Shown here: positions 3,533 to 63,884 of the stretch, piece after piece
Position numbering within the stretch: the stretch's first letter is position 1
Layout: each line of letters starts with the position of its first letter
Origin: Phycisphaerales bacterium
GTDB lineage: Bacteria; Planctomycetota; Phycisphaerae; WQYP01
Assembly: GCA_027313145.1 (NCBI GenBank)
Contig: DAHVEJ010000001.1
Span: 6,698-70,697, forward strand
Direction of reading: 5' to 3'
DNA length: 64,000 nt
Notes under the pieces: model-generated
What the model was told of the DNA's origin: nothing
The model's input: only the letters and a program-made list of their open reading frames with translations
The model's database searches: none
Translations under genes and position numbers: made by a program

Positions 3533-3654
3533 CCTTTTAAATATATGGGAAGACCGTTTTCAACTTTCAGCATGATAAGCAGGAAAGCCCAAAAACGTGA
3601 TCCATCGCCCGGTGCGCCTTTAAGCCGGCAAATCAGACCGGATAGAACCCTATC

Positions 3655-4752
3655 TTACCGCTGGGAAATCAGATCCGCCTCGCGTTGGCGTTGCGTAGCG
3701 CGGCGGAGAATGCGCTTTTCCCGGCGTGTTAAACTGTGCATTCCTTTCTCGCTGACTTTTTCGAGAATTTTGTCCACCATCTGCTGCTCTTTTCGGGCGC
3801 GATGATCACGTCGGCCAATCCAGTGCAGCCAGCGTTGCAAAAGCCGCTTGCGTTTAGGACCGGGCAAATCGCTGATATTGGCACTAGAGGAAATAAGCTG
3901 GTCAATGGTGCCCGGGCCATCCACCTGTAACGCGCGACGGCGCTGTAAAGAATCAAAAAACAGCATGGCGCACACCAGCATACCTACCACGTTCTTGCCA
4001 TAAGCGGCGAGCACAAATAACAAAACGGCGACCACCATGCCCGTCAGGCAGGTGAAATCCACGGATTTATACGCCCCGGTCATAGGCCAAAGAATCGCCT
4101 GCAGCAGGTAGGCCCCATCAAACCAGTAAAACGGCAGCAGATTAACGGCGACCAGAAAAATATTGGCCGCGCAAAACATATACAGGGCGGCGGCCAGGAA
4201 ATTCGGCGTTAAAAACATCGCGGTGGAATCAGGTTGCAGTTGGCCGAAGATCGCGGAGGACGATAAGGGTGTAACATGCCAATTGATACTGATGATGGTG
4301 CCGACAAACATGGCGACCAGGGCATTAGCCAGAATGCCGCCGCCCTGAGCGGCAAACATCGGCCAAGCCGCGGGCGGGTGCGTGGGCGGAATCATATTTC
4401 CGGCGGGCCACATCAGAAAGTCATCATGCCGGCCGCCGACAAGTTGAGCCGAAATCCTGTGGCCGAATTCATGGACCAATAGCGCTGCAAGAACTCCCGC
4501 GATGGCCAGCACGGCCAGCACCAGCGAGCCGGTATGCAGAGCGTAAAGCAAATCCATCGCAACCAGCAACAGCAGCCAGAAACTGGCCTGCACGCGAATG
4601 CCAAAAAAAGTTCCCAGCGGCAGCGACCAGGAAAGCAGGGATAAAACACCACCGCCCCCCCACGTTCCGCCGAACCCACGATTATAATCCCGGTCACGCC
4701 AACTCATATTTGCGGCACACTTTCCATTTGCAATATTCGCATCGGCCTTCAC
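3655..4752 (-). CDS. Peptidase M50 (site-2 protease family) membrane metalloprotease.
   Basis: HEFGH zinc motif inside a TM helix, multiple TM segments and a basic C-terminal tail. Confidence 0.75.
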   Translation of the reverse strand: MKADANIANGKCAANMSWRDRDYNRGFGGTWGGGGVLSLLSWSLPLGTFFGIRVQASFWLLLLVAMDLLYALHTGSLVLAVLAIAGVLAALLVHEFGHRISAQLVGGRHDDFLMWPAGNMIPPTHPPAAWPMFAAQGGGILANALVAMFVGTIISINWHVTPLSSSAIFGQLQPDSTAMFLTPNFLAAALYMFCAANIFLVAVNLLPFYWFDGAYLLQAILWPMTGAYKSVDFTCLTGMVVAVLLFVLAAYGKNVVGMLVCAMLFFDSLQRRRALQVDGPGTIDQLISSSANISDLPGPKRKRLLQRWLHWIGRRDHRARKEQQMVDKILEKVSEKGMHSLTRREKRILRRATQRQREADLISQR

Positions 4753-5357: not shown

Positions 5358-6959
5358 ATGTTACCAGTTTCCGAAACAAATGAGCCGGAATTGCCGCCCC
5401 CGGACGGGGATTTTGAAGAACAGATTGTCGAGGAAGTGCCGGTGGGCGAAGTAACGCTCATTTTGCCCACTGAGCCAACGGAATCGCGCATGGCCCGCCT
5501 GCACGCCAAAGCCCGTGCCCTGGAGCAGATTCCCGGCGTTTATCTGCTTAAAGATACACGGGACGTGGTGATTTACGTGGGAAAATCCCGATCCCTGCGC
5601 GACCGCGTCAGCAGCTATTTTATAGCCTCCACGGATTTAGGCCCGGTCAAACAGCGCCTGTTGGATTATGTCGTGGATTTTGACATCCTGACGTGTGATT
5701 CAGAAGTGGAAGCCCTGCTCATTGAGAGTCGGCTCATTAAAGATTTGCATCCGCGATTTAACGCCCGGCTCTCTGACGGGAAAAGCTACCCGTACCTGGA
5801 AATTACCACACGCGAGGATTTCCCCGGGGTCTATGTCACACGGCAGCCGCAAACCAGCGGCACGAAGCTTTACGGCCCTTTCATCAGCGGCTATGCGCTT
5901 AAACAGGCGGTCCTGTACATGCAGCGGGCCTTTAAGTTCCGCACATGTCATCTGGAAATTTATGAGGAAGATAACCGGCGGCGGCAATTTCGCCCATGCA
6001 TGCTCTACGCCATCAAGCAATGCACCGCTCCCTGTGCCGATAGAATTAGCCGCCCGCAATATCTGGAGGATATTGAACGACTGAAGAAATTTCTGGATTC
6101 CAGCCGGGGCGATGCGTTAAAGCAGATGACCGCGGACATGGAGGCGGCTTCCGCGGCGCTGGATTTTGAAACAGCCGCGCAGTTACGAGATCAGATTAAG
6201 GCCTTAAAATCCCTGGCGCACCGTGGCAAGGGGGCCAAAGTGATGCAGCCGGAATTGTTTTTCCAGGATCATCAGGCCGGCGTTCGGCAATTGCAGGACG
6301 TGCTGGAACTCGATGAACCCGTGCGGTCCATTGAAGCCATTGACATCGCCCATTTTCAGGGTGAAGCGACCGTTGGTTCACTGGTGAGTTTCATGGATGG
6401 CCGGCCGTTTAAGGGGGGCTACAAGCGATTCCGCATAAAAACGGTGACAGGCATTGACGATTTTCGGTGTATCGCTGAAGTGGTATCTCGGCGGTACCGG
6501 GAAGCGGGACATGGCAATGAATTGTATCCGGATGTCATACTCATTGACGGCGGTCTGGGGCAGCTTCACGCCGCGCAGGGAGCCTTTGCCCAGATGGATA
6601 TCAAGCCGCCGATGGTCATCAGTCTGGCCAAGCGTGAGGAAGAAATTTATATGCAGGGCCGAGCCACGCCGTTCAAGCTTTCCCGCACCAATGCGGCCTT
6701 GAAGCTCCTGCAATTTGCCCGTGATGAAGCCCACCGCTTTGCCCAAAGTTACCATCACCTGTTAATTGCCCGTCGGCAGTTTCAAGACACGCTGCGCGGC
6801 AGCACCGGGAAGCTTAAGATTAAGCGCAAAACCCGCTCAAAAGCAGCAGGTTCCGAGGCTTCCAAAGATAGTGCCACCCCCACAACCGATGAATTCAAAG
6901 TGTTATCCGAACAGGAAATTCGCGATCTGACCGCCAAACCGACTGCCCAACCACCTTGA
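5358..6959 (+). CDS. uvrC: Excinuclease ABC subunit C (UvrC), apparently lacking the C-terminal (HhH)2 domain.
   Basis: N-terminal GIY-YIG (GVYLLKD..VIYVGKS), UvrB-interacting region and RNase H-like endonuclease domain. It ends at 533 aa with a low-complexity basic tail. Confidence 0.88.
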   Translation: MLPVSETNEPELPPPDGDFEEQIVEEVPVGEVTLILPTEPTESRMARLHAKARALEQIPGVYLLKDTRDVVIYVGKSRSLRDRVSSYFIASTDLGPVKQRLLDYVVDFDILTCDSEVEALLIESRLIKDLHPRFNARLSDGKSYPYLEITTREDFPGVYVTRQPQTSGTKLYGPFISGYALKQAVLYMQRAFKFRTCHLEIYEEDNRRRQFRPCMLYAIKQCTAPCADRISRPQYLEDIERLKKFLDSSRGDALKQMTADMEAASAALDFETAAQLRDQIKALKSLAHRGKGAKVMQPELFFQDHQAGVRQLQDVLELDEPVRSIEAIDIAHFQGEATVGSLVSFMDGRPFKGGYKRFRIKTVTGIDDFRCIAEVVSRRYREAGHGNELYPDVILIDGGLGQLHAAQGAFAQMDIKPPMVISLAKREEEIYMQGRATPFKLSRTNAALKLLQFARDEAHRFAQSYHHLLIARRQFQDTLRGSTGKLKIKRKTRSKAAGSEASKDSATPTTDEFKVLSEQEIRDLTAKPTAQPP

Positions 6960-7613: not shown

Positions 7614-9221
7614 ATGTTTCGCCATTGGGATTACCGTAGGTTCTGGATAGGTTGTTGGACGGTGCTGTTCTTATTGGCAACGGTATTGGCCATATTATGC
7701 CTCTGTATCGCGTTTCATGGCCCCCCCCCGGCCCTCAGCCTGCCTGTTCAAGGGCAAGTGACCGTGTCTCTAGCTACAGCGCTAAGTAGTTTTATCTATC
7801 ATCTCCCGTTTCGCTTGGCGATTTTTCTGCCATTATCAGCATTGTACGCAATCTGGGCGATTAAGGTGACAATCTACCTGAAATACGGCAGATTGTCTCT
7901 TGCTGAAAGCGACCTTTACCATGGTAAATCTCGCAACGTCAGTGACGAACTGCTCCCATCACGGCGTGCCCTTTTGGATATGATTATTAACACCATCAAA
8001 AATAATGATGGTCGAAGAACAATAACGGTCGAAAGCCGTTGGGGGGATGGGAAGAGTTTTCTATTGCAACAATTGGAGAAGGATCTGGGTTCGCAATTTG
8101 CGACCGTATGCCTGGACGTCTGGGAACACGCTACCGAGCAGGATCTCCATTTCGCTTTTTTCGAGGCTCTTTTGCGTAATGAGCATGTCATATTCAATCG
8201 CCGCGTGCGCGGCACCATACCCTGTCTGAGCTTACTGCTGACACTCATCCGCCGCGCCCTCTTCGGACTATCCAGCCGTTCATCGCTCTCTCTTTATTGG
8301 GCCGAAGCCGAATTCCAAGTTCCGTTACCAAGGCTGGGCTGGCAGTCGGACATGGAATCAATTTTTGGAAAGCTTAAAACCGGTAACAGGAAGGTGGTCT
8401 TTATCCTTGACGAAATCGACCGTGCCAACCCGGAAATCTGCCAGGCGGCAGTCTCATTAACCCAGCGAGCGCTGCGTGCGCCAAATGTATTCGTCGTGAT
8501 GCCATACGTTCGCGAACAAATGGAGTTCAAGGCATTCAATCCGCTGAGGCCGACTATGGCAGACATCCAGTCAACCATGTTCGGCGTGCTTTGGAAAGAT
8601 TGGAACCAGCTTCGAGATACCGAGGGTTTGAAATCCTCCCAAGGAAATCAGCTTCACTTGCAAGCTGATTGGCTTGGTTTCCCCGATAAATGGATGGGGG
8701 GCAAGATGGCCAGCAGCAGCGCTAGGCCAAAACGCCAAGGACAAAACCTCCGCGCCCGCATGGGCTACGCCAAATCGGAGAGCCCCTTCCAATATCTCAC
8801 GAATCGCCTCCACTGGTCCTTGTTAAAGCACTACCTTCAGGCCACTTCCCCGCACCAAAAACTGCTACGCTTTGCTTTCGCAGAAAAATTCCTGTTTGAC
8901 ATCCACTTCACAATCGACCCCCTGACCGACGTTGATATAGCCGCATCCCTCGTCAGTGTTTCTGAAATCCGGACGGCGCTCGGCGAGGGGATTGTAAACG
9001 ATAAAAGCTTCACGAACCTTGTTTGGGAGAAGATCAGGACCCACCCCGCGAAACCGCAAATAGCGGTGCCCACACTCAGACACTTTAAGAGTCGACTACT
9101 TGAGATGCTCCAAAAATGGAACGATAAGTCAACTACAAGCCAGCCCACTGCAGGCGATATCGCATCCTTAGCTACTATTGTGTACTTAGCCTATTTCTGG
9201 GCTGGTGCGTATGATACTTAA
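7614..9221 (+). CDS. KAP-family P-loop NTPase with N-terminal transmembrane segments.
   Basis: Walker A of KAP type (ESRWGDGKSF) and Walker B VVFILDEIDR. Four or more N-terminal TM helices. Local GC is clearly lower than its surroundings. Confidence 0.6.
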   Translation: MFRHWDYRRFWIGCWTVLFLLATVLAILCLCIAFHGPPPALSLPVQGQVTVSLATALSSFIYHLPFRLAIFLPLSALYAIWAIKVTIYLKYGRLSLAESDLYHGKSRNVSDELLPSRRALLDMIINTIKNNDGRRTITVESRWGDGKSFLLQQLEKDLGSQFATVCLDVWEHATEQDLHFAFFEALLRNEHVIFNRRVRGTIPCLSLLLTLIRRALFGLSSRSSLSLYWAEAEFQVPLPRLGWQSDMESIFGKLKTGNRKVVFILDEIDRANPEICQAAVSLTQRALRAPNVFVVMPYVREQMEFKAFNPLRPTMADIQSTMFGVLWKDWNQLRDTEGLKSSQGNQLHLQADWLGFPDKWMGGKMASSSARPKRQGQNLRARMGYAKSESPFQYLTNRLHWSLLKHYLQATSPHQKLLRFAFAEKFLFDIHFTIDPLTDVDIAASLVSVSEIRTALGEGIVNDKSFTNLVWEKIRTHPAKPQIAVPTLRHFKSRLLEMLQKWNDKSTTSQPTAGDIASLATIVYLAYFWAGAYDT

Positions 9222-9247
9222 ATAACTTGAACCGAAGGAGCTCCACC

Positions 9248-11173
9248 ATGGCGGCCGATAAAGCGGAACACAGTGAGAACCAGACGATTAAAAGCCCACG
9301 GGAGTATCCCCTGCAAAGTCTCTCATCGAACGTCTCGCTGAACACAAAGAGCGAGGAAACGCAAGCCGTTTCCTCCAAGGAAGAATCAACCGCGGAGAGC
9401 GTTTACGAACGCATGCTGAAAGACTCCTGGCGTCTGGGCCAAATTAAGCCCGACGCCGAAGGATGTAAGGAGTTTGTGAAGGCTTTTGCATCAAAATACC
9501 CCCACGATATGGTGATCGACCACTCGCCATATGCGCAGCGTCTGTCCAAAGAGCTGTCAACGGACTATTACCCGGATCGCTATGAGAAGATGCCCGGTAA
9601 CGCCATCCGACTCGAGCTGCTCGAGAGGTCACGCGACGCTGGGCAACGCGCATTATTTTTGAAAAATATAATCCCGAGCGCGGTGCTATCATTATCGGGC
9701 CGCAAACTACTTCGTCCAGTTCAACTGGTTGATTTCCTTTTGGATATCACCGAGCCGATCCCGGTATATCGTGCGGTGGACCTTGCCAAATGGATCGCGG
9801 CGTGCCGCGGTCACATCGCGAGCGTATCAACCAAGCTGCGTGACACCGACTACTACGGAACTGTGGGAAACTTGGCAATCCGAGTCGGGAGGCAAGACGA
9901 CCACAGGTGCCGCCGCGCTGCCATATATTATTATCATGAAATCCTTTCAGCCTACGCGCTCCGCGGCGCGGACTCTTACACGGCTGGCGATTACCATCTC
10001 CTCGAAAGTACAGCCAATAACTTGGCCGTGCGAGTTTCCGATGAAAACGAGTCGGAACAAAGGGACGACTTGCTCCGTAAACTTAAATATCTCTCAATCG
10101 GCGCGGTTCTCCGTTCGCGCACTGATAAATCCACTGCCACCCAGGCTGGCAGCGAGGCCATCTCCACTCCCACAAATGGTTCCGATGAGGGTTGCGGGCC
10201 AGCGCTCACGATCCTCCAAAACACAGGGGTTAGGTTTTCTGAGACGTCAGGCCAGTTCGACCAATGGCCAATTATTCTCGGCGGGATGATGACCATCCGT
10301 GAACCGTGGTCGAAATTGTTCAAGCAGAGCCACGAACTATACGCGTTTGTATATGCGACGGCAGCGGTCGCAAGAGCGTGCACAACCGATACCATTCACC
10401 TCGCACCCTCCGCATGCTTCAACGCTGGCGTTGAAATGCTCCGGTCAAACCGGCGATCCGCTTACGTGGCTGCCCGCGCTTTTATAAACTGTCTGGGTTT
10501 GGTATGGTCGCTTGATGCGTCCCCGGGAAACCTCCTCACTGCCCTTCGTGAGCACGATGGCCTCGACTGCCTCACTAATCTTTTGGGGGCCCTGGTGGAA
10601 TCGGGTGACCAACCGCGCCTCAAAGACTCATTGCAACTTCTCGTCTGCGGAGCAGCTCCAGCACTAAAGGAAGCGTCTTACGACGATAGTCGGCGTATCG
10701 AGAACAGCTCACGAAAGCTGAAGCTGGACTTCGACCTCCCCAAGGATTGCTCGACCGATGAGATGAAAACGGCAGCTTTAAACGTCTTGCGGAAGATGAG
10801 CGAAGACATACCCAACATTCCGCCACCTGGCGAAATTGGACTGGCGAACTGGGCCGCCAGTGCCCTACCGAATGTATTTTTCTCAGTGATTGGCCCTCAA
10901 GGAACCAAAGAACTTGCGGACAGCCTTGCTTCGATCCTCGCCGAGGTCAGCGATAAAGTTAACGAACCTTTGAGTGGCCTCTTGGAATTCTACAAGCCAC
11001 TTGCCGGGAGCGAAAACGCCGAAACTGGTAAAGGCCCGCTAGTCGATATCGGCGCGATAAATCAGCCGAATTGGAAGGAGATAGCGAAGGCGGCAGTCAA
11101 CAATTCCGCAAATAGTCCTTCCGCCTTTGCAACGGCCCTCCGACAGGCTGCACAATGGGCTTCCGAGAAGTGA
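9248..11173 (+). CDS. Hypothetical 641-aa protein of unknown function, probably co-transcribed with the KAP NTPase.
   Basis: Long ORF in low-GC context. The GAAGGAG RBS sits about 7 nt upstream of ATG 9248 (the ORF track start at 9227 lies inside the RBS). No motif recognised by eye. Confidence 0.6.
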   Translation: MAADKAEHSENQTIKSPREYPLQSLSSNVSLNTKSEETQAVSSKEESTAESVYERMLKDSWRLGQIKPDAEGCKEFVKAFASKYPHDMVIDHSPYAQRLSKELSTDYYPDRYEKMPGNAIRLELLERSRDAGQRALFLKNIIPSAVLSLSGRKLLRPVQLVDFLLDITEPIPVYRAVDLAKWIAACRGHIASVSTKLRDTDYYGTVGNLAIRVGRQDDHRCRRAAIYYYHEILSAYALRGADSYTAGDYHLLESTANNLAVRVSDENESEQRDDLLRKLKYLSIGAVLRSRTDKSTATQAGSEAISTPTNGSDEGCGPALTILQNTGVRFSETSGQFDQWPIILGGMMTIREPWSKLFKQSHELYAFVYATAAVARACTTDTIHLAPSACFNAGVEMLRSNRRSAYVAARAFINCLGLVWSLDASPGNLLTALREHDGLDCLTNLLGALVESGDQPRLKDSLQLLVCGAAPALKEASYDDSRRIENSSRKLKLDFDLPKDCSTDEMKTAALNVLRKMSEDIPNIPPPGEIGLANWAASALPNVFFSVIGPQGTKELADSLASILAEVSDKVNEPLSGLLEFYKPLAGSENAETGKGPLVDIGAINQPNWKEIAKAAVNNSANSPSAFATALRQAAQWASEK

Positions 11174-47362: not shown

Positions 47363-47421
47363 CGGATAGAATGATAATTGCTGTCGCGGCAAATGGCAAG
47401 CGTGGCAGCGTGTCGCGTGAT

Positions 47422-47630
47422 GGAGCACCGTGGTGATAACCCGGCGGTTGGCTTGCGGCATGAGATCAACCACCGGATTACCATCCGGTGCTATGCGGAC
47501 GCGTCCGGTTAAAGAAAAAAGGTACCTGACACCTTTTTTCATGGCCGTGGCATAGAGCACCGTGGTGATAACCCGGTGGTTGGCTTGCGGCATTGGATCA
47601 ACCACCGGATTACCATTCGGTGCTCTTGAG
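47422..47630. repeat. Two 75-bp direct repeats (47422-47495 and 47557-47630, about 90% identical). Each contains hairpin CACCGG-ATTACCAT-CCGGTG. They are separated by an A/T-flanked bidirectional terminator-like hairpin (47509-47536).
   Basis: Direct reading. Lies in the divergent intergenic region between the ArsR-methyltransferase gene and manA. Confidence 0.65.
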
Positions 47631-49965: not shown

Positions 49966-52900
49966 ATGAGTAAGAAAATAGAAAACCAGAATACTTCAGG
50001 GTTGAAGCAGGGTGCGGCCGGACCGATGGAAAGCCATCCATTTCTGGATGTGTTAAAACACCGGGTCATGGTATTTGACGGCGGATTAGGCACGCAGATA
50101 TTTGCCGCGAATCTGACGTTGGCCGATTTTAACAATCTGGAAAACTGCCCGGAAGTGCTGGTGCTTTCCCGGCCCGATGTAATTCAATCCATCCATGAAT
50201 CGTATTATGCCGCCGGGTCTGATACGGTGGAAACCGATACGTTTGGTGCCAGTAAAATTGTTCTGGCGGAATTTGGCTTACAAGACCAGTGCCGGGAAAT
50301 AAACAGGAAGGCTGCGACGCTGGCGCGCAACGCCGCGAATAAATTTTCCACACCGGATCGTCCGCGCTTTGTCGCCGGTTCGATTGGCCCGGGCACCAAA
50401 GCCATCACGCTGGGCAACACCACGTTTGACATCATGCATGATTCCTACCTGGAGCAGGTTCGCGGCTTGCTCGATGGCGGGGTTGATGCGATTCTCATTG
50501 AAACATGTTTTGACCTGCTGCAGGCCAAAGTTGCGGTGATTGCCGCGACCGATGCCATGGAGGAAATGGGCGTTCGCGTTCCGATCATGGTGCAGGTAAC
50601 CATGGAAACCGTCGGCACGATGTTGCTGGGTACGGAAATGAACGCGGTGATTACCACACTGGAAGCGCTTCCGGTGGATGTCATCGGCATGAACTGCGCC
50701 ACCGGTCCGGAGCTGATGCGCCCGCACGTGGAAACCTTGAGTCAGAATTGTACGCGCTATTTATCCGTGCAGCCCAATGCCGGCCTGCCTGTGCTGCATG
50801 AGGGCCGCACCCATTTCCCGCTTGGAGCGGCGGAACTTGCCAAGGCCCATGTGGAATTTGTTCAGCAGTTTGGTGTCAATATTGTCGGCGGATGCTGCGG
50901 CACCACACCGGAGCATATCCGCGCTGTGGCGGCGGCGGTGGCACAATTAAAACCGGCAGTCCGCAGCGCACACGGGCGGAAAATGGATGCCGCGCATGCG
51001 ACTATTTCATCGTTGTATAGCGCGGTGGACGCCCGGCAGGATAATTCCATTCTCATTATCGGCGAACGCACCAATACCAACGGTTCCAAAAAATTCCGGG
51101 ATTGCCTCCTGGCCGCGGATTGGGACACGTTGACCGCCATCGGGCGCGAACAGGTGAAGGAAGGATCGCACGTTGTTGATGTCTGCGTGGATTATGTGGG
51201 CCGCAACGGCGTCCCGGACATGACCGATATTGTCCGGCGCTTTGCCAAGGAAGTCACCGCGCCCTTGATGATCGACTCGACACAGTTGGATGTCATCGAA
51301 GCCGGATTACAAGCCGCCCCGGGCAAGTGCATTGTCAATTCCATTAATCTGGAAGATGGCGAAGAAAAACTCGCCCGCATGGCCGCGTTACTGAAGCGCT
51401 ACGGGGCCGCCGTGGTCGCAGGCACCATTGATGAAGACAAAATTGAGGCCATGGCCAAAACCGCCGATCGTAAAATTGAAATTGCCAAAAGGCTGTACGA
51501 TCTGCTGGTTAATAAATACGGCATTCCGGAAACGAATATTTATTTCGATCCGCTCATATTTCCCATTGTTACCGGGCAGGAGGAAGTGCGGCGACTGGCG
51601 CTGGAAACCATTGACGGCATCCGTCGAATCAGTGAGGAACTGCCCAACTGCCATACCACGCTGGGGCTTTCCAACGTTTCCTTCGGGTTAAAGCCGTATG
51701 CGCGGCTGGTGTTAAACAGTGCGTTCTTCAATGAATGCGTCAAGGCGGGCTTGACCAGCGCGATTGTCCACGCCAGTAAAATTTTGCCGCAGAATAAAAT
51801 TGACCCGGAACATTACCAATGGGCACTGGATCTGATTTATGATCGGCAGCGGGAAGATTATAAGCCGCTGCAACTGCTGACGAATCTGGGTGCCCCGGCC
51901 AAAGTGGCGGAGGCCACAGAACAACTGCCGCTGGAGGAAAAACTGCGCCGGCACATTATTGACGGTGATAAGCAAAAACTGTCGGAACATCTTGATCAGG
52001 CCATGACCAAGTATGCGCCATTGGACATTATCAATGATCATCTGCTGGCCGGCATGAAAGTGGTGGGCGACTTGTTCGGCAGCGGGCAGATGCAGTTACC
52101 GTTTGTGCTTCAAAGTGCGGAAGTCATGAAAGCGGCGGTAGCCTATCTGCAACCCTTTATGCCCAAGAGCGAAGGCCAAAGCCGCGGAAGAATGGTTCTG
52201 GCCACCGTTAAGGGGGACGTGCACGACATTGGTAAAAATCTGGTGGATATTATTTTATCCAACAATGGCTATACGGTGGTCAACCTGGGCATCAAACAGC
52301 CCATCGCCAATATCGTACAGGCCGCAAAAGAACATAACGCCCAGATCATCGGTCTTTCCGGCCTGCTGGTAAAGTCCACGCTGGTCATGCGCGATGATTT
52401 GCAGGAACTTAATCGCCTGGGAATTGACATACCGGTAATTCTTGGCGGTGCGGCACTCACCCGCGGTTATGTGGAAAAAGATTTGCGCGATATTTACAAA
52501 GGCCCCTTGTTCTATGGCAAAGATGCCTTTGAGGGCTTGCGCGTCATGGACCACGTGGCAACCGGAAAAATCAGCGAGATTCTCGTTGCAACCGGTGAAT
52601 CCAGGCAACAGGCGGATTTGCGAGCCAAAGCAGGGGCCTCCCCGGTGACGCCGGAAACCGACATCCCCAAGATTACCTGCGATGATTATGCCAACTCCGG
52701 TATACGCACCGACGTTGCGGTGCCGGCGTTACCTTTTTACGGGTCGCGCGTGGTGACGGATATTCCGGTGGATGCGGTATTTCCCTATATTGACGAGGTG
52801 GCACTTTTCCGCGGCCAATGGCAGTTCAAAAGCGGCACCATGCCGCGCGATGAATTTCGTCAGTGGACGGAAAGCCATGTTCGCCCGATTTATAACCGCA

Positions 52901-53514
52901 TCAAGCAGAAATGCCGCGACCTGAATCTGCTGCGCCCGCAGGTGGTTTACGGCTACTTCTGGGTTCAGGCGGAAAAAAATGATTTAATTGTTTATGCCGA
53001 GGATAAAAAAACGCAGCGTCTGCGTTTTCATTTTCCCCGGCAACCGGGGCGCAAACGTTGGTGCCTTTCGGACTTTTTCCGTTCCGTGGATTCCGGCGAA
53101 ATGGACGTTCTGGCGTTGCAGTGCGTGACGGCGGGATCGGCCGTGGCCCCGTATGAAAAACAACTGTTTGAGCAGGGTGATTTCACCGAGTATCTCTACA
53201 TTCACGGGATGGGCGTACAGATTGCGGAAGCGTTGGCGGAAATGTGGCATAAACGCGTTCGCCAGGAATTGGGCATTGCGGATAAAGATGGTCCCACCAT
53301 GCGCGATATTTTCGCCTGCCATTTTCAAGGCTGCCGCTACAGCTTCGGCTACCCGGCCTGCCCGGATTTACAGGATGAAGAAAAGCTTTTCGCCCTGTTG
53401 GATCCCGCGCGCATCGGCTGCACATTATCCGAAAATTGGATGATTCAGCCGGAGCAATCCACCTCCGCGATGATCGTTCACCACCCCGAAGCCCGTTATT
53501 TTAACGTGCTGTAG
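49966..53514 (+). CDS. metH: Cobalamin-dependent methionine synthase.
   Basis: All four modules (Hcy-binding, pterin-binding, B12-binding and AdoMet activation) in 1182 aa. Confidence 0.97.
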   Translation: MSKKIENQNTSGLKQGAAGPMESHPFLDVLKHRVMVFDGGLGTQIFAANLTLADFNNLENCPEVLVLSRPDVIQSIHESYYAAGSDTVETDTFGASKIVLAEFGLQDQCREINRKAATLARNAANKFSTPDRPRFVAGSIGPGTKAITLGNTTFDIMHDSYLEQVRGLLDGGVDAILIETCFDLLQAKVAVIAATDAMEEMGVRVPIMVQVTMETVGTMLLGTEMNAVITTLEALPVDVIGMNCATGPELMRPHVETLSQNCTRYLSVQPNAGLPVLHEGRTHFPLGAAELAKAHVEFVQQFGVNIVGGCCGTTPEHIRAVAAAVAQLKPAVRSAHGRKMDAAHATISSLYSAVDARQDNSILIIGERTNTNGSKKFRDCLLAADWDTLTAIGREQVKEGSHVVDVCVDYVGRNGVPDMTDIVRRFAKEVTAPLMIDSTQLDVIEAGLQAAPGKCIVNSINLEDGEEKLARMAALLKRYGAAVVAGTIDEDKIEAMAKTADRKIEIAKRLYDLLVNKYGIPETNIYFDPLIFPIVTGQEEVRRLALETIDGIRRISEELPNCHTTLGLSNVSFGLKPYARLVLNSAFFNECVKAGLTSAIVHASKILPQNKIDPEHYQWALDLIYDRQREDYKPLQLLTNLGAPAKVAEATEQLPLEEKLRRHIIDGDKQKLSEHLDQAMTKYAPLDIINDHLLAGMKVVGDLFGSGQMQLPFVLQSAEVMKAAVAYLQPFMPKSEGQSRGRMVLATVKGDVHDIGKNLVDIILSNNGYTVVNLGIKQPIANIVQAAKEHNAQIIGLSGLLVKSTLVMRDDLQELNRLGIDIPVILGGAALTRGYVEKDLRDIYKGPLFYGKDAFEGLRVMDHVATGKISEILVATGESRQQADLRAKAGASPVTPETDIPKITCDDYANSGIRTDVAVPALPFYGSRVVTDIPVDAVFPYIDEVALFRGQWQFKSGTMPRDEFRQWTESHVRPIYNRIKQKCRDLNLLRPQVVYGYFWVQAEKNDLIVYAEDKKTQRLRFHFPRQPGRKRWCLSDFFRSVDSGEMDVLALQCVTAGSAVAPYEKQLFEQGDFTEYLYIHGMGVQIAEALAEMWHKRVRQELGIADKDGPTMRDIFACHFQGCRYSFGYPACPDLQDEEKLFALLDPARIGCTLSENWMIQPEQSTSAMIVHHPEARYFNVL

Positions 53515-53789
53515 CTGCGCCGCGTGGCCATAGCGCTGCACCAGATGCCGCATCGCACGGCAAATTGCGGGTAGAAAAAGAGGCTGACCTGGCCGTGATA
53601 AAATACCCATGGGTAATAATTGGCCGGAAGTATGCAGGAGGCACTACCCATTATCGACGACTGTTCGTATGGGGCGGATATTCCAATTGTCCAAGGGTAT
53701 TTCTCAACAGCACGTGAAAATCGGCGTGATTCCATCTGCATGGTCAAGGCCGACCATTTACTCTTGCGTAACGAAAAGGAGTATAAACG

Positions 53790-54512
53790 ATGACGGTCAT
53801 TTCTCTTTGTCTTGATACGCTGGCAGGCACAGCTCCATCGCCCCCGTCTCCGGACGCGCAAACTGTGAAGTTTATTATCGATCAAGTGGAGCACTTCTAC
53901 GGTGAGATGTTCCTTGGGATGACTGCCATTTACGCCCTAATCACTGCTATTTTCGGCTATCTTCTGCCTAAACAGCGTCTTAAATCCCTCCATAAAAAAG
54001 TCCAGGGGGCGCGCGCGGCGGCCCAACATGCCGTTACGACCATCGACCAAAAGCTTGCCTCCGCCAAGGAGGAGGTTGCCGTCGCTGTGGAACAGCTTCG
54101 GCACCTGACAGCTGCTGTCATGCGTTTTAACACGGGCCTGTTAGTGTACGCATCCGGCGCTCGAAAGGTGGAGATCGCCAGCATGAAAAGTGGCAGTCTG
54201 TCACAAAATCCCGATCTAATCCCTGCAAGCAAGGAAATGCTCATCGCCGCTCATGAATTCTTCGCCGCGGGTGATCGCCGAGCCTTCGGTGTCGCAGTAG
54301 GGCTTTCCATCATCTGGCTTAAAGAGCACTACAAATTCGCCCCGATTCCGTCAGATCGCCAGTTCCACGCCCTCATTGCTCAGACACAAAAGGAATACAG
54401 TGAAGCCATAAACCAGAGGGGCTGGGGAGAAACACCGGAATTACAACCATCCGAACAATTGGATTGGTTTCTCGGCTTGGGGTGCCGCAATGAAGCCGAA
54501 CCACCAAAATAA
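53790..54512 (+). CDS. Hypothetical protein (240 aa) with one TM segment and a coiled-coil region, located inside the metH-associated insert.
   Basis: ORF with a good RBS (AAAGGAG). Its first about 15 codons are paralogous to the ORF at 58240. Confidence 0.5.
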   Translation: MTVISLCLDTLAGTAPSPPSPDAQTVKFIIDQVEHFYGEMFLGMTAIYALITAIFGYLLPKQRLKSLHKKVQGARAAAQHAVTTIDQKLASAKEEVAVAVEQLRHLTAAVMRFNTGLLVYASGARKVEIASMKSGSLSQNPDLIPASKEMLIAAHEFFAAGDRRAFGVAVGLSIIWLKEHYKFAPIPSDRQFHALIAQTQKEYSEAINQRGWGETPELQPSEQLDWFLGLGCRNEAEPPK

Positions 54513-54826
54513 CACCGCCCCGGCGGACTTGCATTAACGGGGCGGGGTTGTGGGGTGGAGAGTTTTATATTGCGACTGGCAACTGGCTATGAAGGGGAAA
54601 GTTCGTACAAGACCCTTGCACCGATGGGCAATTCGCCGGAGGTATGAAAAAGGCATTATGCGGCGCTGGTGCCCGAAAGAGGACTCTGTTTTATATGATT
54701 TTGCCCTGGATATACAAGCCCCTCGGTATTGCTGCGAAACCTCCAACTGCGCAATGTTTGCCCTGCAAGCTTATTCGGGAGGTGAAAAGTACTGCTATTT
54801 TCGAGACTTTATGGAAATCACGGATA

Positions 54827-57112
54827 TCAACGCCCCGGTTCCCATGGCGTTACACCGTGGCGACGCCACCAAGCCGTCACCTTTTCGACCACATCCGGCG
54901 CGTCCTTGTAAGAAACCCCAGTCCAGAATTTCGGGCCAAGCCGCATGCGCTTTCCGCCTATGATTCGAGCGTGTACTCGCTCGAAACCAAATTCGCTGGG
55001 TTTCTGGGTCGCCTTTGCCAAGATCAGGAGGGGCATGCCGTGATAGGCATCTATCCGATCTTTCAGCGTGAAGCCGGGATTCCAGAGACGGGAGGGGACC
55101 CAGATTGGTCGTTTGATTAAATAAAGCAGGTAGGGAACTACACCACGGGGTTGATAGGCCATCAAATAGTTCAAAACCGGAGAGATCGGATCGTTGGCCT
55201 GATCGATAGGCAGGCGCCGGCCCCGGGCTATAGCGTTGGCCACGCCTTTTAAATATGCTGCCAACAATGGCCCCATATAGGGTGAATGCCAGTGCAGCAA
55301 TTCACTGTCGGCAAAGTCGCGATCGTTGTAGAAACCGCTTGAGCGATACGGTGTGATCATGAGCGACAAGATGATGTCTCTGTTACCAATGACCACCCTG
55401 CGCCGGGTCCATTTCGGGCCGCCCGCCCCGGTAAGAAACGTGAATTCGTCACCGACTATCACCCTGGTGGGCGTCCGATCCCATAGCGCGTCCATGGTGG
55501 TCCATCGTATCGTTGCGTGATCATCGGTAAGCTGTTGCGACAAGACCCAATCGACCCACGCACCCGGGAATTTTTTAATCGCTTGCACGCCGGCAAGGCG
55601 CTCGGGCATGTCGCCGGAGTACACGGCACCCACCGCACCGATAATCCGTGGCGATAGCCCGCGTGCGAAATAATCCAAAGCTTTCGCTCGCGGTAGTAAC
55701 GACACTGCCGCAGCCCAACTGGATATGGCTGCATTGAGGTTCATCTGGCGTTGAAAATTGCCCCTTGACATATCACGACACGCGCCGACCAGCGATTGCA
55801 GGCGTGCCACCACCAAGCCGACATACGAATTTGCCGGCGCAGCGATCGGCAACGTAACGCTCACCGCGGTCGACGGTAACGTCGGGAGTTGTCGTGGGCC
55901 GAGCGTGCCCGAGAAGTGCCGAAACTTCCGAGACTGACTGTCGGCCTGGCTCAAGTCGGCAATAGGTTTGAACCCGGGATGCCAAGCCTTCAGTCCCTGT
56001 CTCCGCCAATAGTTACGAATTAGGATCAAGGCCCTCTTCTGCGCCGCTTCGCTGGAGGCGTGTACCCAAGCGGAATGCGGTCCGCCGCGGAAGCCATATC
56101 CCGCGGGGTTTTTGCCAGCCGTGATTATAAGCAACCGTATCGGCAAGGAAAGGCTGTCCTGATAGTGCGAAATGCCATGGGAAGTCCAAGAGTCGCTAAG
56201 GCCACCGACCTTACGGGTCTGAGCAAGAAACAGCAGGTATGGAACTGCCGCGCGCGGCCGGAAGGATGCGCATAACCGGATGTACCGGCGGGCCTCCAAG
56301 GGGTCGGGATCCCCCAGCCGGTTAAGCGGCCCGGCGGCGAGGCCAAATTTCGCCACCATGATGGCACTTCGTCGGATGGGAGCCGCCAGCAGTTGGACGA
56401 TCAATCTGCGATCTCCACGGCGGAGAAGCATGGAGAATATTCTAGGGAGATCGCGGTTGTAACTCGCAATCGAATCAGCCGTAGGAACGGTAAGTAGCAA
56501 GGGCTGTCGCAACATAGTGCGCACGGGGGTAGGAAAATTAGGCCCCTGCAAAATGGGATACAGGTGGCGAAGCTCCACGGAGTAGTCGCTCTGCAAGACA
56601 GATTTTCCCAGGGCATCCTGCAGAAGCGCCTCCGTCGTAAGAGGCCCCCAACGCTGACGCTGGATCGCCGCGGCTGCCGACAATTGGACATACTGGTCCC
56701 AATCGCGAAGTAGATGGGCGACGATCCAGTCCTTTCCCTTCCCTTGCGTCCTCGAGATCGCCGGTAATGAACGGGCGCGGACAAAGGGGTCCGCCGAGAA
56801 GGCGGGGGCGATGATGGGCAGAACGGTATTTTGCATCCCCCAATTCAGTTCTTGCAGGCGGAGGTGAGCATCGGTGATACCGGCAGCGGCCGCAGCCCAC
56901 CTCGCGGCCTCGGCATTAAATTTAAGTATGGTGCGGAGCTGTACCGGACTGCGGATGTTGCGCATCCATGACGCGAGTTGCAGAGCGAGCTCCGACTGCG
57001 CATATCTCGAAGGCGCAGTATCTACGGCGGAACCTCGGATAACGGTGGGCGTCACCGTCATCAAGAGCACGGCGGCACCACAACACCACCGCTTATTCCT
57101 AGACAACCCCAT
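54827..57112 (-). CDS. Large hypothetical secreted protein (about 760 aa) with internal repeats, located inside the metH-associated insert.
   Basis: Signal peptide MGLSRNKRWCCGAAVLLMTVTPTVIRGSA. Internal repeat VPYLLFLAQTRK... / VPYLLYLIKRPIW.... No recognisable catalytic motif. Confidence 0.5.
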   Translation of the reverse strand: MGLSRNKRWCCGAAVLLMTVTPTVIRGSAVDTAPSRYAQSELALQLASWMRNIRSPVQLRTILKFNAEAARWAAAAAGITDAHLRLQELNWGMQNTVLPIIAPAFSADPFVRARSLPAISRTQGKGKDWIVAHLLRDWDQYVQLSAAAAIQRQRWGPLTTEALLQDALGKSVLQSDYSVELRHLYPILQGPNFPTPVRTMLRQPLLLTVPTADSIASYNRDLPRIFSMLLRRGDRRLIVQLLAAPIRRSAIMVAKFGLAAGPLNRLGDPDPLEARRYIRLCASFRPRAAVPYLLFLAQTRKVGGLSDSWTSHGISHYQDSLSLPIRLLIITAGKNPAGYGFRGGPHSAWVHASSEAAQKRALILIRNYWRRQGLKAWHPGFKPIADLSQADSQSRKFRHFSGTLGPRQLPTLPSTAVSVTLPIAAPANSYVGLVVARLQSLVGACRDMSRGNFQRQMNLNAAISSWAAAVSLLPRAKALDYFARGLSPRIIGAVGAVYSGDMPERLAGVQAIKKFPGAWVDWVLSQQLTDDHATIRWTTMDALWDRTPTRVIVGDEFTFLTGAGGPKWTRRRVVIGNRDIILSLMITPYRSSGFYNDRDFADSELLHWHSPYMGPLLAAYLKGVANAIARGRRLPIDQANDPISPVLNYLMAYQPRGVVPYLLYLIKRPIWVPSRLWNPGFTLKDRIDAYHGMPLLILAKATQKPSEFGFERVHARIIGGKRMRLGPKFWTGVSYKDAPDVVEKVTAWWRRHGVTPWEPGR

Positions 57113-57257
57113 GTTTCGTGCTCCAGTTTGCGGAGGCCGGCGCGGCGAAGTTGGATCGTGGCCGTTCGTGGCCTTCAGGTCACTCAAGCACACAACGGGC
57201 CTGAACGCAAACAACTATAAACACTCCCATCGAGCCATGCAAGAACAAACCAAGAAC

Positions 57258-57584
57258 AGTAATTTCTGCATCCACGGGATGGGCGTACAGATTGCGGAAG
57301 CGTTGGCGGAAATGTGGCATAAACGCGTGCGCCAGGAATTGGGCATTGCGGATAAAGATGGTCCCACCATGCGCGATATTTTCGCCTGTCATTTTCAAGG
57401 CTGCCGCTACAGCTTCGGCTACCCGGCCTGCCCGGATTTACAGGATGAAGAAAAGCTTTTCGCCCTGTTGGATCCCGCGCGCATCGGCTGCACATTATCC
57501 GAAAATTGGATGATTCAGCCGGAGCAATCCACCTCCGCGATGATCGTTCACCACCCCGAAGCCCGGTATTTTAACGTGCTGTAG
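57258..57584 (+). pseudogene. Duplicated 3' fragment of metH (last about 108 codons), near-identical to 53190-53514.
   Basis: Protein tail HGMGVQIAEALAEMWHKRVRQELG...HHPEARYFNVL is identical. Only a few synonymous nucleotide differences. Homology continues about 60 nt past the stop codon. Confidence 0.85.
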
Positions 57585-57682
57585 CTGCGCGGCACGGTCA
57601 TGGCGTTGCATCAGATACCGCATTGCGCGTCAGATTGCGGGACACGCCATGGAACCTGATCTATCGCAATACGCAAGGCCCA

Positions 57683-58144
57683 TTAACCAGCAGCACATGT
57701 GAGCGTGATATAGGAAAAGGCCGAACACAGCGCCAGATCAACGCAGAACCAGATTATGAACCTTGGTATTTCGCCGGAAACTTCGAGTTGGGGCAACTTG
57801 TAGGTACAAAATAGAGCGGCCCACCTCAGCCCGGATTCAAATGCAACCAACAATCGCTGTCCGCCCGTCAATGTCTTGGCCGAAACGTCCCTTGCACCGA
57901 GCCACCCGGTCACCAGGAAGAATTGCTTCCCCAGGCGCGGTATCGTAAGAAGGAGCAGGAGGGTACCGGTTATTAAAAAGTTAAGGAAAAGCATCAACAT
58001 GACAGTACTTGGCTTTAAATGAACGAAAACCGCAGGTTTTTGCGAGTAACGAAACAGGATCCATGATAATCCCGTCAGCATCAATCCGAGGAGCGCCGAC
58101 CTGCACAGGCGTTGTGGAATTGTCAGCACCCTTGAATCCGCCAT
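57683..58144 (-). CDS. Hypothetical 4-TM membrane protein.
   Basis: Hydrophobic ORF. Confidence 0.4.
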   Translation of the reverse strand: MADSRVLTIPQRLCRSALLGLMLTGLSWILFRYSQKPAVFVHLKPSTVMLMLFLNFLITGTLLLLLTIPRLGKQFFLVTGWLGARDVSAKTLTGGQRLLVAFESGLRWAALFCTYKLPQLEVSGEIPRFIIWFCVDLALCSAFSYITLTCAAG

Positions 58145-58388
58145 TGCGGGACCCCCATGTTCATTTCAAATCTGTTTCGTGATGATACGGACAGCGATGG
58201 AATACGGCAACGCTTGCCTAACGAAAAGGAGTATAAACCATGACGGGCTTTTCTTTTTGCTCTGGCGCGCTGGCAGGAAGTGGAAATCATGCGGACAAAA
58301 TGCCTGTAGATGACGGTAACTACGGACGGATGGTACAACTATGCGAACGACCATGCGCAGCAAGACCCATACGAGCACCGGTGCGCCG

Positions 58389-58865
58389 TCACAGTGCAGG
58401 CGGCTTGATCAGCCGGAGGTCGAGCCTGATTTCCTGTTTCGGGCCGATCGTGCAGCTTGCGAAATCGCGATGAGCGGGATTAAGCAGGTAATTCCATTCG
58501 CTGGGGACAATTACGCTGGGCAATCGCAGAACGGCTGATCTCGCGCCAGCCACCCAGGTATCGCCGATCTTTTGCACGGTGGCGGGCGAAGGGGATCTGC
58601 GCCATGCCGCAGGAAGCGCAGCAGGGTCGAGGGTTGTCATGAGCGTCTGATCAAATGTTACGGGGAAAATCACATAATGCCGCATAAGGTCCTGAGCCTG
58701 CAGGTGCACGAGCATCTCCAGGATCGCCAGCGATATACTTCCGGTGGTGTACACCACGGCTGTGCCAGGACTGTTCCATCGCCCTCCGTAGGTCTTTGCG
58801 CCACCTCCGGTGAACGCGGTGGCTGCATGCCTGGCCTTGGTGATGCGCCACGCATGGATCATCAT
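58389..58865 (-). CDS. RES-domain toxin (MbcT/ParT-like) of a RES-Xre toxin-antitoxin pair.
   Basis: RES signature region (GGRWN...AVVYTTGSISLAILEMLVH). 4-nt overlap with the upstream antitoxin. Confidence 0.8.
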   Translation of the reverse strand: MMIHAWRITKARHAATAFTGGGAKTYGGRWNSPGTAVVYTTGSISLAILEMLVHLQAQDLMRHYVIFPVTFDQTLMTTLDPAALPAAWRRSPSPATVQKIGDTWVAGARSAVLRLPSVIVPSEWNYLLNPAHRDFASCTIGPKQEIRLDLRLIKPPAL

Positions 58866-59329
58866 GTGAAGACTCCGTGTTCAAGTCGGCCCATGAGGTT
58901 CTCAACTTCGCGGGCACCGACCTCCGTGGACGCAAACTCCAGTGGAATTTCGCCGCCGAGTCCTGGCTGCGGGCTTAGCAGCCATTTGCGAGCCTCCGCA
59001 GTGTCACCCTCAAACAGGTCAATTGCCATATCAAAAATGATGGACATGCGCAACACCCGGTCCGACTCATCGGCTCGCAGCCTGCCCTGGCTTTGCCGGC
59101 GGGTCAGCGTGCGCTGCGGGATGGCCAGGCAACGGGAAACCTGCGTCCAGGGTAGGTCGGTGGTCTTCTGGAACTCGGCCAGAGTCTTAAACGGAAAGCC
59201 GGCGCGGACCTGGCGAACCGTCTTTTTCACATCGTCGACGGCGATTCCCAGTTTGCGGGCCAAACGTATCCGATTTTTGGTTCCGACCGTTCCCTTGGGC
59301 ACTCGTTCTTTAACGGCGGACATGAGCAA
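58862..59329 (-). CDS. Xre-like antitoxin (DUF2384/MbcA/ParS family) of the RES-Xre pair.
   Basis: HTH N-terminus and a C-terminal toxin-binding domain typical of RES antitoxins. Confidence 0.72.
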   Translation of the reverse strand: MLMSAVKERVPKGTVGTKNRIRLARKLGIAVDDVKKTVRQVRAGFPFKTLAEFQKTTDLPWTQVSRCLAIPQRTLTRRQSQGRLRADESDRVLRMSIIFDMAIDLFEGDTAEARKWLLSPQPGLGGEIPLEFASTEVGAREVENLMGRLEHGVFT

Positions 59330-59642
59330 CTCCTGTGTTAGCCATATGGCTATATTATATGCGCCACATGGCCCCTATACAACACTCCATGGCAATTCGC
59401 CGGAAATATGCCCAGCACCCACCCATTTGGCATGCACATTCGTAAGTACGGAAAGGCATGAAGTTTTTTTGGCAAGGCTCTATTCGGCGGGTATGAATGG
59501 AGAAATAAGAACGTAACCCGCTTCGCCGATGACCAGCCCCACGAGAAAACCCATCACGCCAAAGGCTATGCGGATATTCCAGTACAGGTGCAGTTTATAC
59601 GTGGCGATCTCGCCTCCGTGTGTGGTAAGGAGAACCGCTCCG

Positions 59643-63482: not shown

Positions 63483-63884
63483 TTAGCGGCAGGACTCATA
63501 TTGCTGATCGCTGACTTTCTCCAGCCAGTCCACCGCACTGCCATTGAGTTTCTCCTGAATCGCGATATGCGTCATGGCGGTGGTGGCGGTTGCGCCATGC
63601 CAATGTTTTTCGCCTGGGGCAAACCAGACCACATCTCCGGGACGGATTTCCTGCCGATCTCCTGCCCACTTTTGTGCCCAGCCGCAGCCGCCAGTGACAA
63701 TTAACGTCTGGCCCAGCGGGTGCGTGTGCCAGGCTGTGCGGGCACCGGGTTCAAAGGTGACGCCGGCACCGACAACGCGAGCAGGTTCGGGCGGGGCCAT
63801 AATCGGATCAATCCGGACCGTGCCGGTAAACCAGTCTGCCGGACCCTTTCCGGAAGGTTCTGAGCCGATGCGTTTGATTTCCAT
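63483..63884 (-). CDS. Cupin-domain protein.
   Basis: Cupin motifs G(X)5HXH ([12 protein letters not shown]) and the second motif. Confidence 0.65.

Follow-up and report, generated by a model that had tools for sequence, protein, structure and literature searches.

Some genomic islands integrate at the 3' ends of conserved genes, for example tRNA genes, guaA and trmE, by means of tyrosine recombinases. Here we describe a locus in a 64,000-nucleotide stretch of a Phycisphaerales bacterium (contig DAHVEJ010000001.1 of assembly GCA_027313145.1; the whole stretch is referred to below as the window), in which a segment with two cargo genes lies directly behind the methionine synthase gene metH and is bracketed by two copies of the 3' end of that gene. 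The locus resembles tyrosine-recombinase islands in its position at a gene 3' end, in the regeneration of the gene tail, in its direct repeats and in the presence of accessory cargo beside a toxin-antitoxin (TA) pair. It differs from them in that no integrase was found, the repeats are 383 bp of plain homology, the junctions are variable and there is no conserved att core. Most likely, the insert arose by ordinary homologous recombination and not via a dedicated mobile element.

Closer counterparts are found in experimental work on DNA with one-sided homology. In Escherichia coli, such DNA is mostly re-circularised and then enters by a single crossover, duplicating 109-950 bp of the locus (PMC3240628), while strict homology-facilitated illegitimate recombination (HFIR) is rarer and typically deletes recipient DNA (PMC3240628). 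According to the work cited in PMC3240628 and PMC5361080, HFIR is known in Acinetobacter, S. pneumoniae and P. stutzeri. With Campbell-type integration as described in E. coli (PMC3240628), our locus shares a partial locus duplication flanking the insert, 325 nt here versus 109-950 bp there, and the combination of a homologous crossover with non-homologous closure of the incoming molecule, without a dedicated recombinase; it differs in being a natural event among uncultured Phycisphaerae that would involve a sibling-strain allele and not a plasmid construct, and in that the circle is one that we infer. With HFIR it shares the use of a conserved gene as homologous anchor for foreign DNA and the 3-10-bp microhomology joints; unlike HFIR, it shows a duplication instead of a deletion, and its single-nucleotide polymorphisms (SNPs) indicate a reciprocal crossover instead of a wholly resident right copy. 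A third relative is the 3'-end displacement of rhs, cdi and type VI secretion system (T6SS) effector-immunity loci, where repeated events build arrays (PMC5361080). In PMC5361080, and in Jackson et al. 2009 (PMC2935791) as cited there, a conserved gene likewise gains a new 3' end from incoming DNA, and the old one is moved downstream as an orphan. However, the two metH tails differ only synonymously and carry no attached toxin or immunity gene; the displacement of the metH tail looks like a side effect of the event, not its purpose. The structure is a new and well-resolved example of a process already known, carrying orphan cargo. Its main features are as follows, where L followed by a number denotes a fetched locus.

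49966..53514, + strand: metH, cobalamin-dependent methionine synthase, 1182 aa, intact (Pfam hidden Markov models, HMMs)
53190..53572, + strand: copy A of the first direct repeat (DR1), comprising the metH tail to 53514 and a 58-nt post-stop segment, psA (alignment)
53573..53759, + strand: spacer a, an alternative allele downstream of metH, unrelated to spacer b by alignment
53760..53827, + strand: copy A of the second direct repeat (DR2), holding the opening codons of the 240-aa gene and its ribosome-binding site (RBS), AAAGGAG; in L002, the TA block is joined to a homologous start
53790..54512, + strand: cargo gene 1, 240 aa, predicted all-helical, one hydrophobic segment (residues ~40-60)
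54827..57112, - strand: cargo gene 2, 761 aa, with a putative signal or anchor at the N-terminus and a tandem pair of HEAT-like modules, ~320 aa each
57260..57278, + strand: junction J1, the illegitimate joint of the upstream flank of the 761-aa gene to the 53190-equivalent of metH, from a three-way comparison with the L002 flank and the L005 metH
57260..57642, + strand: DR1 copy B, comprising the displaced metH 3' remnant (metH', 57260-57584) and the post-stop segment psB
57643..58209, + strand: spacer b, the native sequence downstream of metH, with a 153-aa multi-transmembrane open reading frame (ORF) at 57683-58144 (- strand)
58210..58277, + strand: DR2 copy B, in which the remains of a 240-like gene start run into the end of the TA block; L002 and L087 have the same fusion

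Five direct-repeat families of at least 45 nt are present in the window, DR1 being the longest and DR2 the shortest. The repeat finder places the DR1 cores at 53192-53491 and 57262-57561 (98% identical over 300 nt, 4,070 bp from start to start), and pairwise alignment stretches them to ~53190-53572 and ~57260-57642, 383 bp each, that is, the last 325 nt of metH and 57-58 nt past the stop. The metH' remnant retains the last 108 codons without the 5' part of the gene. Past the junction, four differences separate the copies in the coding part, all of them synonymous: 53202 T/C (ATT/ATC), 53259 T/G (GTT/GTG), 53319 C/T (TGC/TGT) and 53496 T/G (CGT/CGG). The tails are 99% identical, and their longest identical run is the 176-nt stretch between 53319 and 53496. 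Past the stop, 12 of 57 positions differ (79% identity), copy A carrying psA and copy B psB. The DR2 copies, 68 nt long and 82% identical, span the RBS and the first 12-13 codons. These results sustain much of the original prediction, which had been made from the sequence of the window: it had reported the duplicated metH tail with about 60 nt of downstream sequence, the greater divergence past the stop, the recurrence of a second block with RBS and leader, and a RES-Xre TA pair following the insert region (HMM scores over curated cut-offs, below). It had also listed three synonymous changes in the coding part, to which ATT/ATC is now added as a fourth.

The joint between the 761-gene flank and metH' is contained in a k=31 Logan contig (L001, from SRR10333328, probably the window's own sample), which equals window positions 53466-57302 exactly. 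The sequence shared at J1 is far shorter than k=31 and the junction lies inside the contig; it is thus real DNA and not a join made by the assembler.

We reconstructed the arrangement of the locus in relatives from exact-protein look-ups and blastn comparisons with the window, using metagenome contigs. The closest species-level genomes are Planctomycetota/Phycisphaerae metagenome-assembled genomes (MAGs). The informative loci, with their identity to the window, are the following.

L168 (ERZ27237285), 99.6%: intact metH, psB, spacer b with the 153-aa ORF and DR2 copy B, leading into RES; insert absent
L087, 98.6%: spacer b, DR2 copy B, TA pair, 214-aa gene
L086 (ERZ27237454), 1.6 kb, 96%: post-stop segment, spacer a, 240-aa gene, 20-nt motif (see below), 761-aa gene (3' end)
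L085 (ERZ27233557), 93%: one metH copy, spacer a, 240-aa gene shortened by a 250-bp deletion, different cargo over 4 kb, TA pair, 214-aa-like gene
L002 (ERZ27236962), ~91%: metH, 15 bp, DR2-like start, TA pair, 20-nt motif, 761-aa gene; 240-aa gene and second tail both absent
L005, closest species representative, 90.5% over the stretch (metH region 96%): intact metH, spacer b, contig end
L088, 67.7-kb JGI contig, ~85%: metH, a different islet of 2.9 kb, a 200-nt metH' remnant, spacer b, glycosyltransferase (GT2) genes

L168 is an empty site in a near-identical strain: its sequence runs from the equivalent of 53073, in metH upstream of the duplication boundary, through that of 58558, in RES, and lacks the insert. 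Spacers a and b are alternative alleles of one locus, which the window holds in tandem. Spacer a follows a single metH directly in L085 and a post-stop segment in L086, and its first ~90 nt recur in L088. Both alleles lead into a 240-like RBS and start, intact in allele a and truncated and fused to the TA block in allele b, which explains DR2. An a-type allele thus comprises spacer a and the 240-aa gene together with the 761-aa gene or different cargo, and a b-type allele comprises spacer b with its membrane ORF of 153 aa, after which RES/Xre follows. The 153-aa ORF of spacer b encodes an identical protein in L168 and keeps its length in L088 (70% nucleotide identity), where it lies beside the metH' remnant. 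The other cargo of L085 includes NotI-like and weakly HaeII-like restriction enzymes, a DPPY-motif fragment and DUF2806. The flank downstream of metH is a strain-level variable hotspot in this Phycisphaerae lineage. Synteny is kept across Phycisphaerae from ~45 kb (ahcY, ArsR-methyltransferase, PMI, pseudouridine synthase and metH) and stops at the metH stop codon. In more distant Phycisphaerae, ordinary genes follow metH (GGDEF/EAL, GH2, GT2, thioredoxin), and the idea of an order-wide mobile-element hotspot at this position was therefore dropped.

Some further rearrangements were seen in these loci. L002 (~5640-5700, - strand) has a 15-nt tandem duplication (CTTTGTCTTGGTACA / CTTTGTCTTGGTACG) inside the DR2-like leader, 15 bp past the metH stop; an IS66-like reading of the L002 flank, made by eye, found no support, as Pfam returned nothing for its ORFs of 184, 85, 88 and 51 aa. 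In L007, positions 2692-4139 correspond to window 1459-1, inverted, so that the metH-downstream hotspot is joined to sequence lying 53 kb upstream in the window. A large rearrangement thus has its breakpoint in this hotspot.

We read the two junctions of the insert differently. At J1, the window tracks the L002-type 761-gene flank up to CATCCA and then continues as metH; the microhomology is CATCCAyGGG, with 15 of 19 matches when extended, and the exact junction is absent from the JGI metagenome contigs that we searched. The other side is read as a homologous one, for which the four variable sites (53202, 53259, 53319 and 53496) and the post-stop segment provide markers. The tail of L168, taken as the resident one, r, has the states T, T, C, G with psB; copy A has T, T, C at the first three sites, then T and psA, and copy B has C, G, T, then G and psB. 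Given an incoming tail e with C, G, T, T and psA, a single switch between 53319 and 53496 accounts for both copies. At three of the four sites, the state of e is common in relatives (C, G and the final T) and that of r is private, whereas the T at 53319 is private to e. Copy A may accordingly be read as resident up to the crossover (53320-53495) and element-derived after it. This reciprocal r/e pattern is the signature of a Campbell-type single crossover of a circle with the order tail, psA, spacer a, 240-aa gene, motif, 761-aa gene and flank. As expected for such an event, DR1 brackets the insert as direct repeats equal to the shared homologous segment, and the repeats are reciprocal chimeras of resident and incoming sequence, albeit with few markers.

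We therefore consider it probable, though well short of certain, that the insert stems from the alternative allele of a sibling strain, a fragment of which was re-circularised and then integrated at the hypervariable metH-flank hotspot through one Campbell-type crossover. In this scenario, a fragment of an a-type chromosome that began within the metH tail and ended a short way upstream of the 761-aa gene would have been closed into a circle at CATCCAyGGG. One RecA-type homologous crossover between this circle and the metH tail of a b-type chromosome, inside the 176-nt identical stretch, would then leave an intact hybrid metH, the 3.7-kb cargo, the displaced old metH tail and the native downstream DNA. 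The circular intermediate, the dependence on RecA and the route of DNA transfer are the conjectural parts of the scheme; observed are the repeats, the sequence of J1 with its microhomology, the empty site, the occurrence of a- and b-type alleles apart from each other in other samples, the SNP pattern and the lack of recombinase genes among the ORFs searched. Several points weigh against it. A donor chromosome with the order metH, spacer a, 240-aa gene, 761-aa gene and flank at 99% identity was not found, L086 being just 1.6 kb long and 96% identical. The SNP argument comprises four sites and the post-stop block, and about 1 in 8 patterns would fit a single switch by chance. That the tails are 99% and the post-stop segments 79% identical requires either that metH was homogenised and its flank was not, or that gene conversion came later. 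L168 could be a revertant, produced by recombination between the repeats, instead of an ancestral empty site. Finally, the same short-read graph (k <176) fits a free 4,070-bp circle together with an empty chromosome.

A second event at the same flank is seen in L088. There, metH is followed by the first ~90 nt of spacer a, the TA pair, a 214-aa-like gene and two short fragments, after which come the metH' remnant (200 nt, 95.5% identical to L088's own first copy) and a diverged post-stop segment. The joint between a cupin-gene fragment and metH shows a perfect 10-nt microhomology, TTTTCGCCTG (10/10), and a third joint, from spacer a to the TA block, shares GACGA. The remnants begin at different metH positions, the 53190-equivalent in the window and the 53309-equivalent in L088, and the sequences on their left are unrelated. 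In metH position, neighbouring sequence and cargo, L088 is unlike the window, which argues against a conserved att site. As judged from these joints, the comparison supports repeated illegitimate-plus-homologous recombination at the metH flank. Since its copies are merely 95.5% identical and the assembly is another one, L088 shows the integrated architecture unambiguously. The cupin fragment at the metH' joint (L088 11521-11629, corresponding to window 63508-63616) is 96% identical to its counterpart, compared to ~75-86% for the rest, which suggests a recent exchange of that piece between lineages.

The original prediction had favoured a site-specific integrative element, possibly a degraded island, neither of which our results support. 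Its reading of an insertion at the metH 3' end that regenerates the gene tail is confirmed by the discrete 4,070-bp segment and the empty site, which comparison of the metH-downstream region in related genomes, as it had recommended, revealed in L168 and L005. No integrase or transposase domain was detected among the window ORFs searched with Pfam (every ORF of 246 aa or more, the chief candidate genes between 53.5 and 64 kb and two ORFs overlapping annotated genes), in agreement with its remark that the window lacks an integrase; the 240- and 761-aa ORFs of the insert had no recombinase match, and blastn of the insert against plasmids and phages returned no match. One might still suppose a tyrosine or serine recombinase, encoded elsewhere or since lost, with the metH tail as attB and a copy of the tail in attP. 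Insertion at a conserved gene 3' end with the tail regenerated, the direct repeats, the empty site in relatives and the reuse of the same target in L088 all fit this supposition. However, no recombinase is found in the insert or among the Pfam-searched ORFs in the rest of the window, the window and L088 share no att core or element end, the 325-nt and 200-nt remnants start at different metH positions, and their left sides are unrelated (the 761-gene flank in the window, a cupin-gene fragment in L088). In each case the junction has the appearance of a microhomology joint to DNA that is ordinary chromosomal sequence in relatives, and the repeat is 383 bp of plain homology instead of a short att core. 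We give this explanation the lowest probability of all those considered, a very small one. Moreover, both cargo genes occur in relatives without a visible duplication, an outcome that the original prediction itself had named as speaking against it: the 761-aa gene lies beside the TA pair in L002, and the 240-aa gene follows a single metH in the available part of the L085 contig. What the data show is close to its fallback, a recombination-driven cassette exchange.

Other explanations were considered as well. The tandem might not exist as one molecule, an empty-site chromosome and a separate 4,070-bp circle, or a mixture of strains, having been threaded by the assembler through the 176-nt stretch. 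The Logan contigs of SRR10333328 end 30 nt from copy-specific SNPs (L001 at 53466-57302, L169 at 57536-58463), so that the graph is ambiguous at k=31; the empty-site path is present in another sample (L168), and the tails deduced under this assumption are exactly e and r. Nevertheless, a two-gene circle of 4 kb that lacks any replication or recombination gene can hardly be expected to persist, save as a rare excision product, the 87-kb NCBI contig resolved the repeat as the integrated form, and L088 has the integrated architecture. For these three reasons we favour integration and regard a separate circle as unlikely. Strict HFIR, in which a linear donor strand is anchored by metH homology and its far end joined to the recipient metH at a microhomology, accounts for the 5-10 nt of microhomology at J1 and at both L088 junctions, which is within the 3-10 bp reported (PMC3240628; PMC5361080). 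Yet it predicts a wholly resident copy B, whereas copy B differs from L168 at the equivalents of 53202, 53259 and 53319 and, at those of 53202 and 53259, carries common, non-resident states; it also usually deletes recipient DNA (PMC3240628), which is duplicated here. This makes strict HFIR quite improbable. Unequal exchange at the microhomology could also have produced a tandem duplication in situ, after which the flank of one unit was replaced or gene conversion took place. This would yield the same joint, and the 99% identity of the tails follows from it naturally. But extra steps are needed to turn the second unit from a-type to b-type, and a copy A of one parental type is predicted, while the observed copy is r-like on its left and e-like on its right. 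Two full a-type units in tandem were seen in none of the fetched loci, and we deem this course of events very improbable. Lastly, a-type islets may be integrase-less mobile cassettes, which would use the metH tail as a homology handle and host recombination to move in and out; the window and L088 would then represent independent captures, and the cargo a new envelope-associated accessory function such as defence or surface variation. The TA and restriction genes that share the hotspot are consistent with such a role, but we hold this broader interpretation to be doubtful. If it were true, the metH-tail cassette would suffice by itself as a unit of exchange in populations of Phycisphaerae.

The 4,070-bp segment holds only two ORFs, of 240 and 761 aa, which bears out the view of two unknown genes as the cargo of the insert. 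The description of these genes in the original prediction also stands as regards the 240-aa and ~760-aa ORFs and the internal repeats of the larger protein; the strand of the latter gene (minus) was absent from it. The 240-aa protein has no Pfam, NCBIfam or PADLOC match and a negligible one in PHROGs (E=0.043), and its sole relatives in a word-indexed search of 5.8 billion clusters are at least 90% identical. An AlphaFold2 model of the protein is all-helical but too poor for use (pLDDT 52). Its gene has a dN/dS of 0.28-0.34 in frame and above 1 in shifted frames; that of the 761-aa gene, compared with its one 90%-identical homologue, is 0.42. Both cargo genes are thus under purifying selection.

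The 761-aa protein likewise shows nothing significant in Pfam, NCBIfam or PADLOC, and nothing in PHROGs. Its sequence contains a two-fold internal repeat (residues 63-380 versus 457-760, 23% identity, E=7e-7), and the N-terminus, judged by eye, looks like a signal peptide or membrane anchor. We found 65 remote homologues, mainly single-module proteins of ~400 aa. Among the 32 aligned members of the family, 14 match HEAT_2 (PF13646), and the family profile matches alphaRep chains. When the word-indexed protein search was repeated with the family profile, no further relatives appeared beyond those at least 90% identical. The cargo is predicted to consist, probably, of envelope-associated binding or scaffold proteins. 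The two genes are no obligate pair, since L002 has the 761-aa gene alone and L085 the 240-aa gene alone. The cargo has restriction genes and the TA pair as companions in the hotspot, a hint of a role in defence or as an accessory function; what was tested lends this no support (no match in PADLOC).

Around the insert, metH itself is matched by the Pfam families S-methyl_trans, Pterin_bind, B12-binding_2, B12-binding and Met_synt_B12. The other neighbouring features are listed here.

54627..54646, + strand: 20-nt motif GGCAATTCGCCGGAGGTATG, bordering the 761-gene block on the left
58389..59329, - strand: type II TA pair, RES toxin (58389-58865) and Xre antitoxin (58862-59329) (NCBIfam and Pfam HMMs)
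59391..59410, + strand: the other strong copy of the 20-nt motif, bordering the TA block on the right, upstream of Xre

The RES-Xre pair is a neighbour of the insert and not part of it. Its genes, which overlap by 4 nt, score above the curated cut-offs (NF049844, 167.7 bits with a cut-off of 110; NF049845, 107.7 bits with a cut-off of 90) and are also matched by the Pfam families RES, Xre_MbcA_ParS_C and Xre-like-HTH. The 153-aa protein shows nothing significant in Pfam, NCBIfam or PADLOC and nothing in PHROGs; the same holds for the 214-aa protein, save for a weak PHROGs match (E=0.011).

The 20-nt motif, GGCAATTCGCCGGArrTATG, has two matches in the window within 2 mismatches versus 0.01 expected, and weaker copies at 53615-53634 (in spacer a) and 57765-57784. 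In L002, one copy lies at the junction of the TA and 761-gene blocks. Found at the edges of rearranged blocks, the motif might act as a short substrate for recombination or, upstream of Xre, as a regulatory site. We dropped the notion of a conserved recombination site, as there are two strong copies only and the weaker ones resemble other window hits with 5 mismatches; we keep the motif as a recurrent breakpoint. No tRNA gene was found in the window. Rfam gave nothing credible in 53-60.6 kb and nothing at gathering score across the whole window, the post-stop segments and spacers have folding energies no better than shuffles, and a promoter and terminator scan returned sites no more numerous than in shuffles.

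Two ORFs at the block boundaries deserve mention. A chimeric ORF of 236 aa (56874-57584, + strand) fuses the antisense of the 761-aa gene start to the last 108 metH codons, and a 77-aa ORF (58240-58473, + strand), open also in L002 and L087, begins with the 240-like leader and overlaps RES antisense. Both are chimeric products of the rearrangements and probably non-functional; the 77-aa ORF is unlikely to be a gene. In L085, a 148-bp duplication (8770-8917 and 9747-9894, corresponding to window 59481-59628) flanks a 211-aa gene and forms part of a small membrane ORF. This segment is single-copy in the window and lies on the opposite side of the gene in L007, representing another duplication-flanked module of the same hotspot. 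Integron cassettes were considered and dropped: the 148-bp repeat in the vicinity of the 214-aa gene is coding sequence, a small ORF, and does not resemble attC, and no IntI was found.

Elsewhere in the window, a tandem 73-nt element (47420-47492 and 47552-47624; 93% alike, 132 nt apart) lies between the ArsR-methyltransferase/ahcY and PMI genes. On the minus strand its copies fold into long near-perfect hairpins (-43 and -44 kcal/mol, z -5.2 and -6.1); the relative L006 has the element too, and no Rfam family matches it. At 7614-11173, beside uvrC, an ORF of 648 aa without Pfam match comes after a 535-aa P-loop NTPase of the KAP family; the two may form a pair of accessory or defence-like character. 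Three more dispersed repeats, 53-118 nt long and 83-87% alike, occur at 19794-19911/41258-41375, at 7069-7148/32061-32140 and, inverted, at 28024-28076/36560-36612.

The metH flank provides a natural insertion without dedicated mobile-element machinery. Its empty site and its joint have been recovered, as have the two alleles and the interval of the crossover. The cargo adds one orphan membrane protein and one member of a sparse, uncharacterised family of HEAT-module proteins. A regenerated gene tail and direct repeats are insufficient to call an integrative element, which is a caution for island-prediction tools and for the reading of MAGs. In this Phycisphaerae lineage, accessory genes would be stackable behind a housekeeping gene by one microhomology joint and one homologous crossover.

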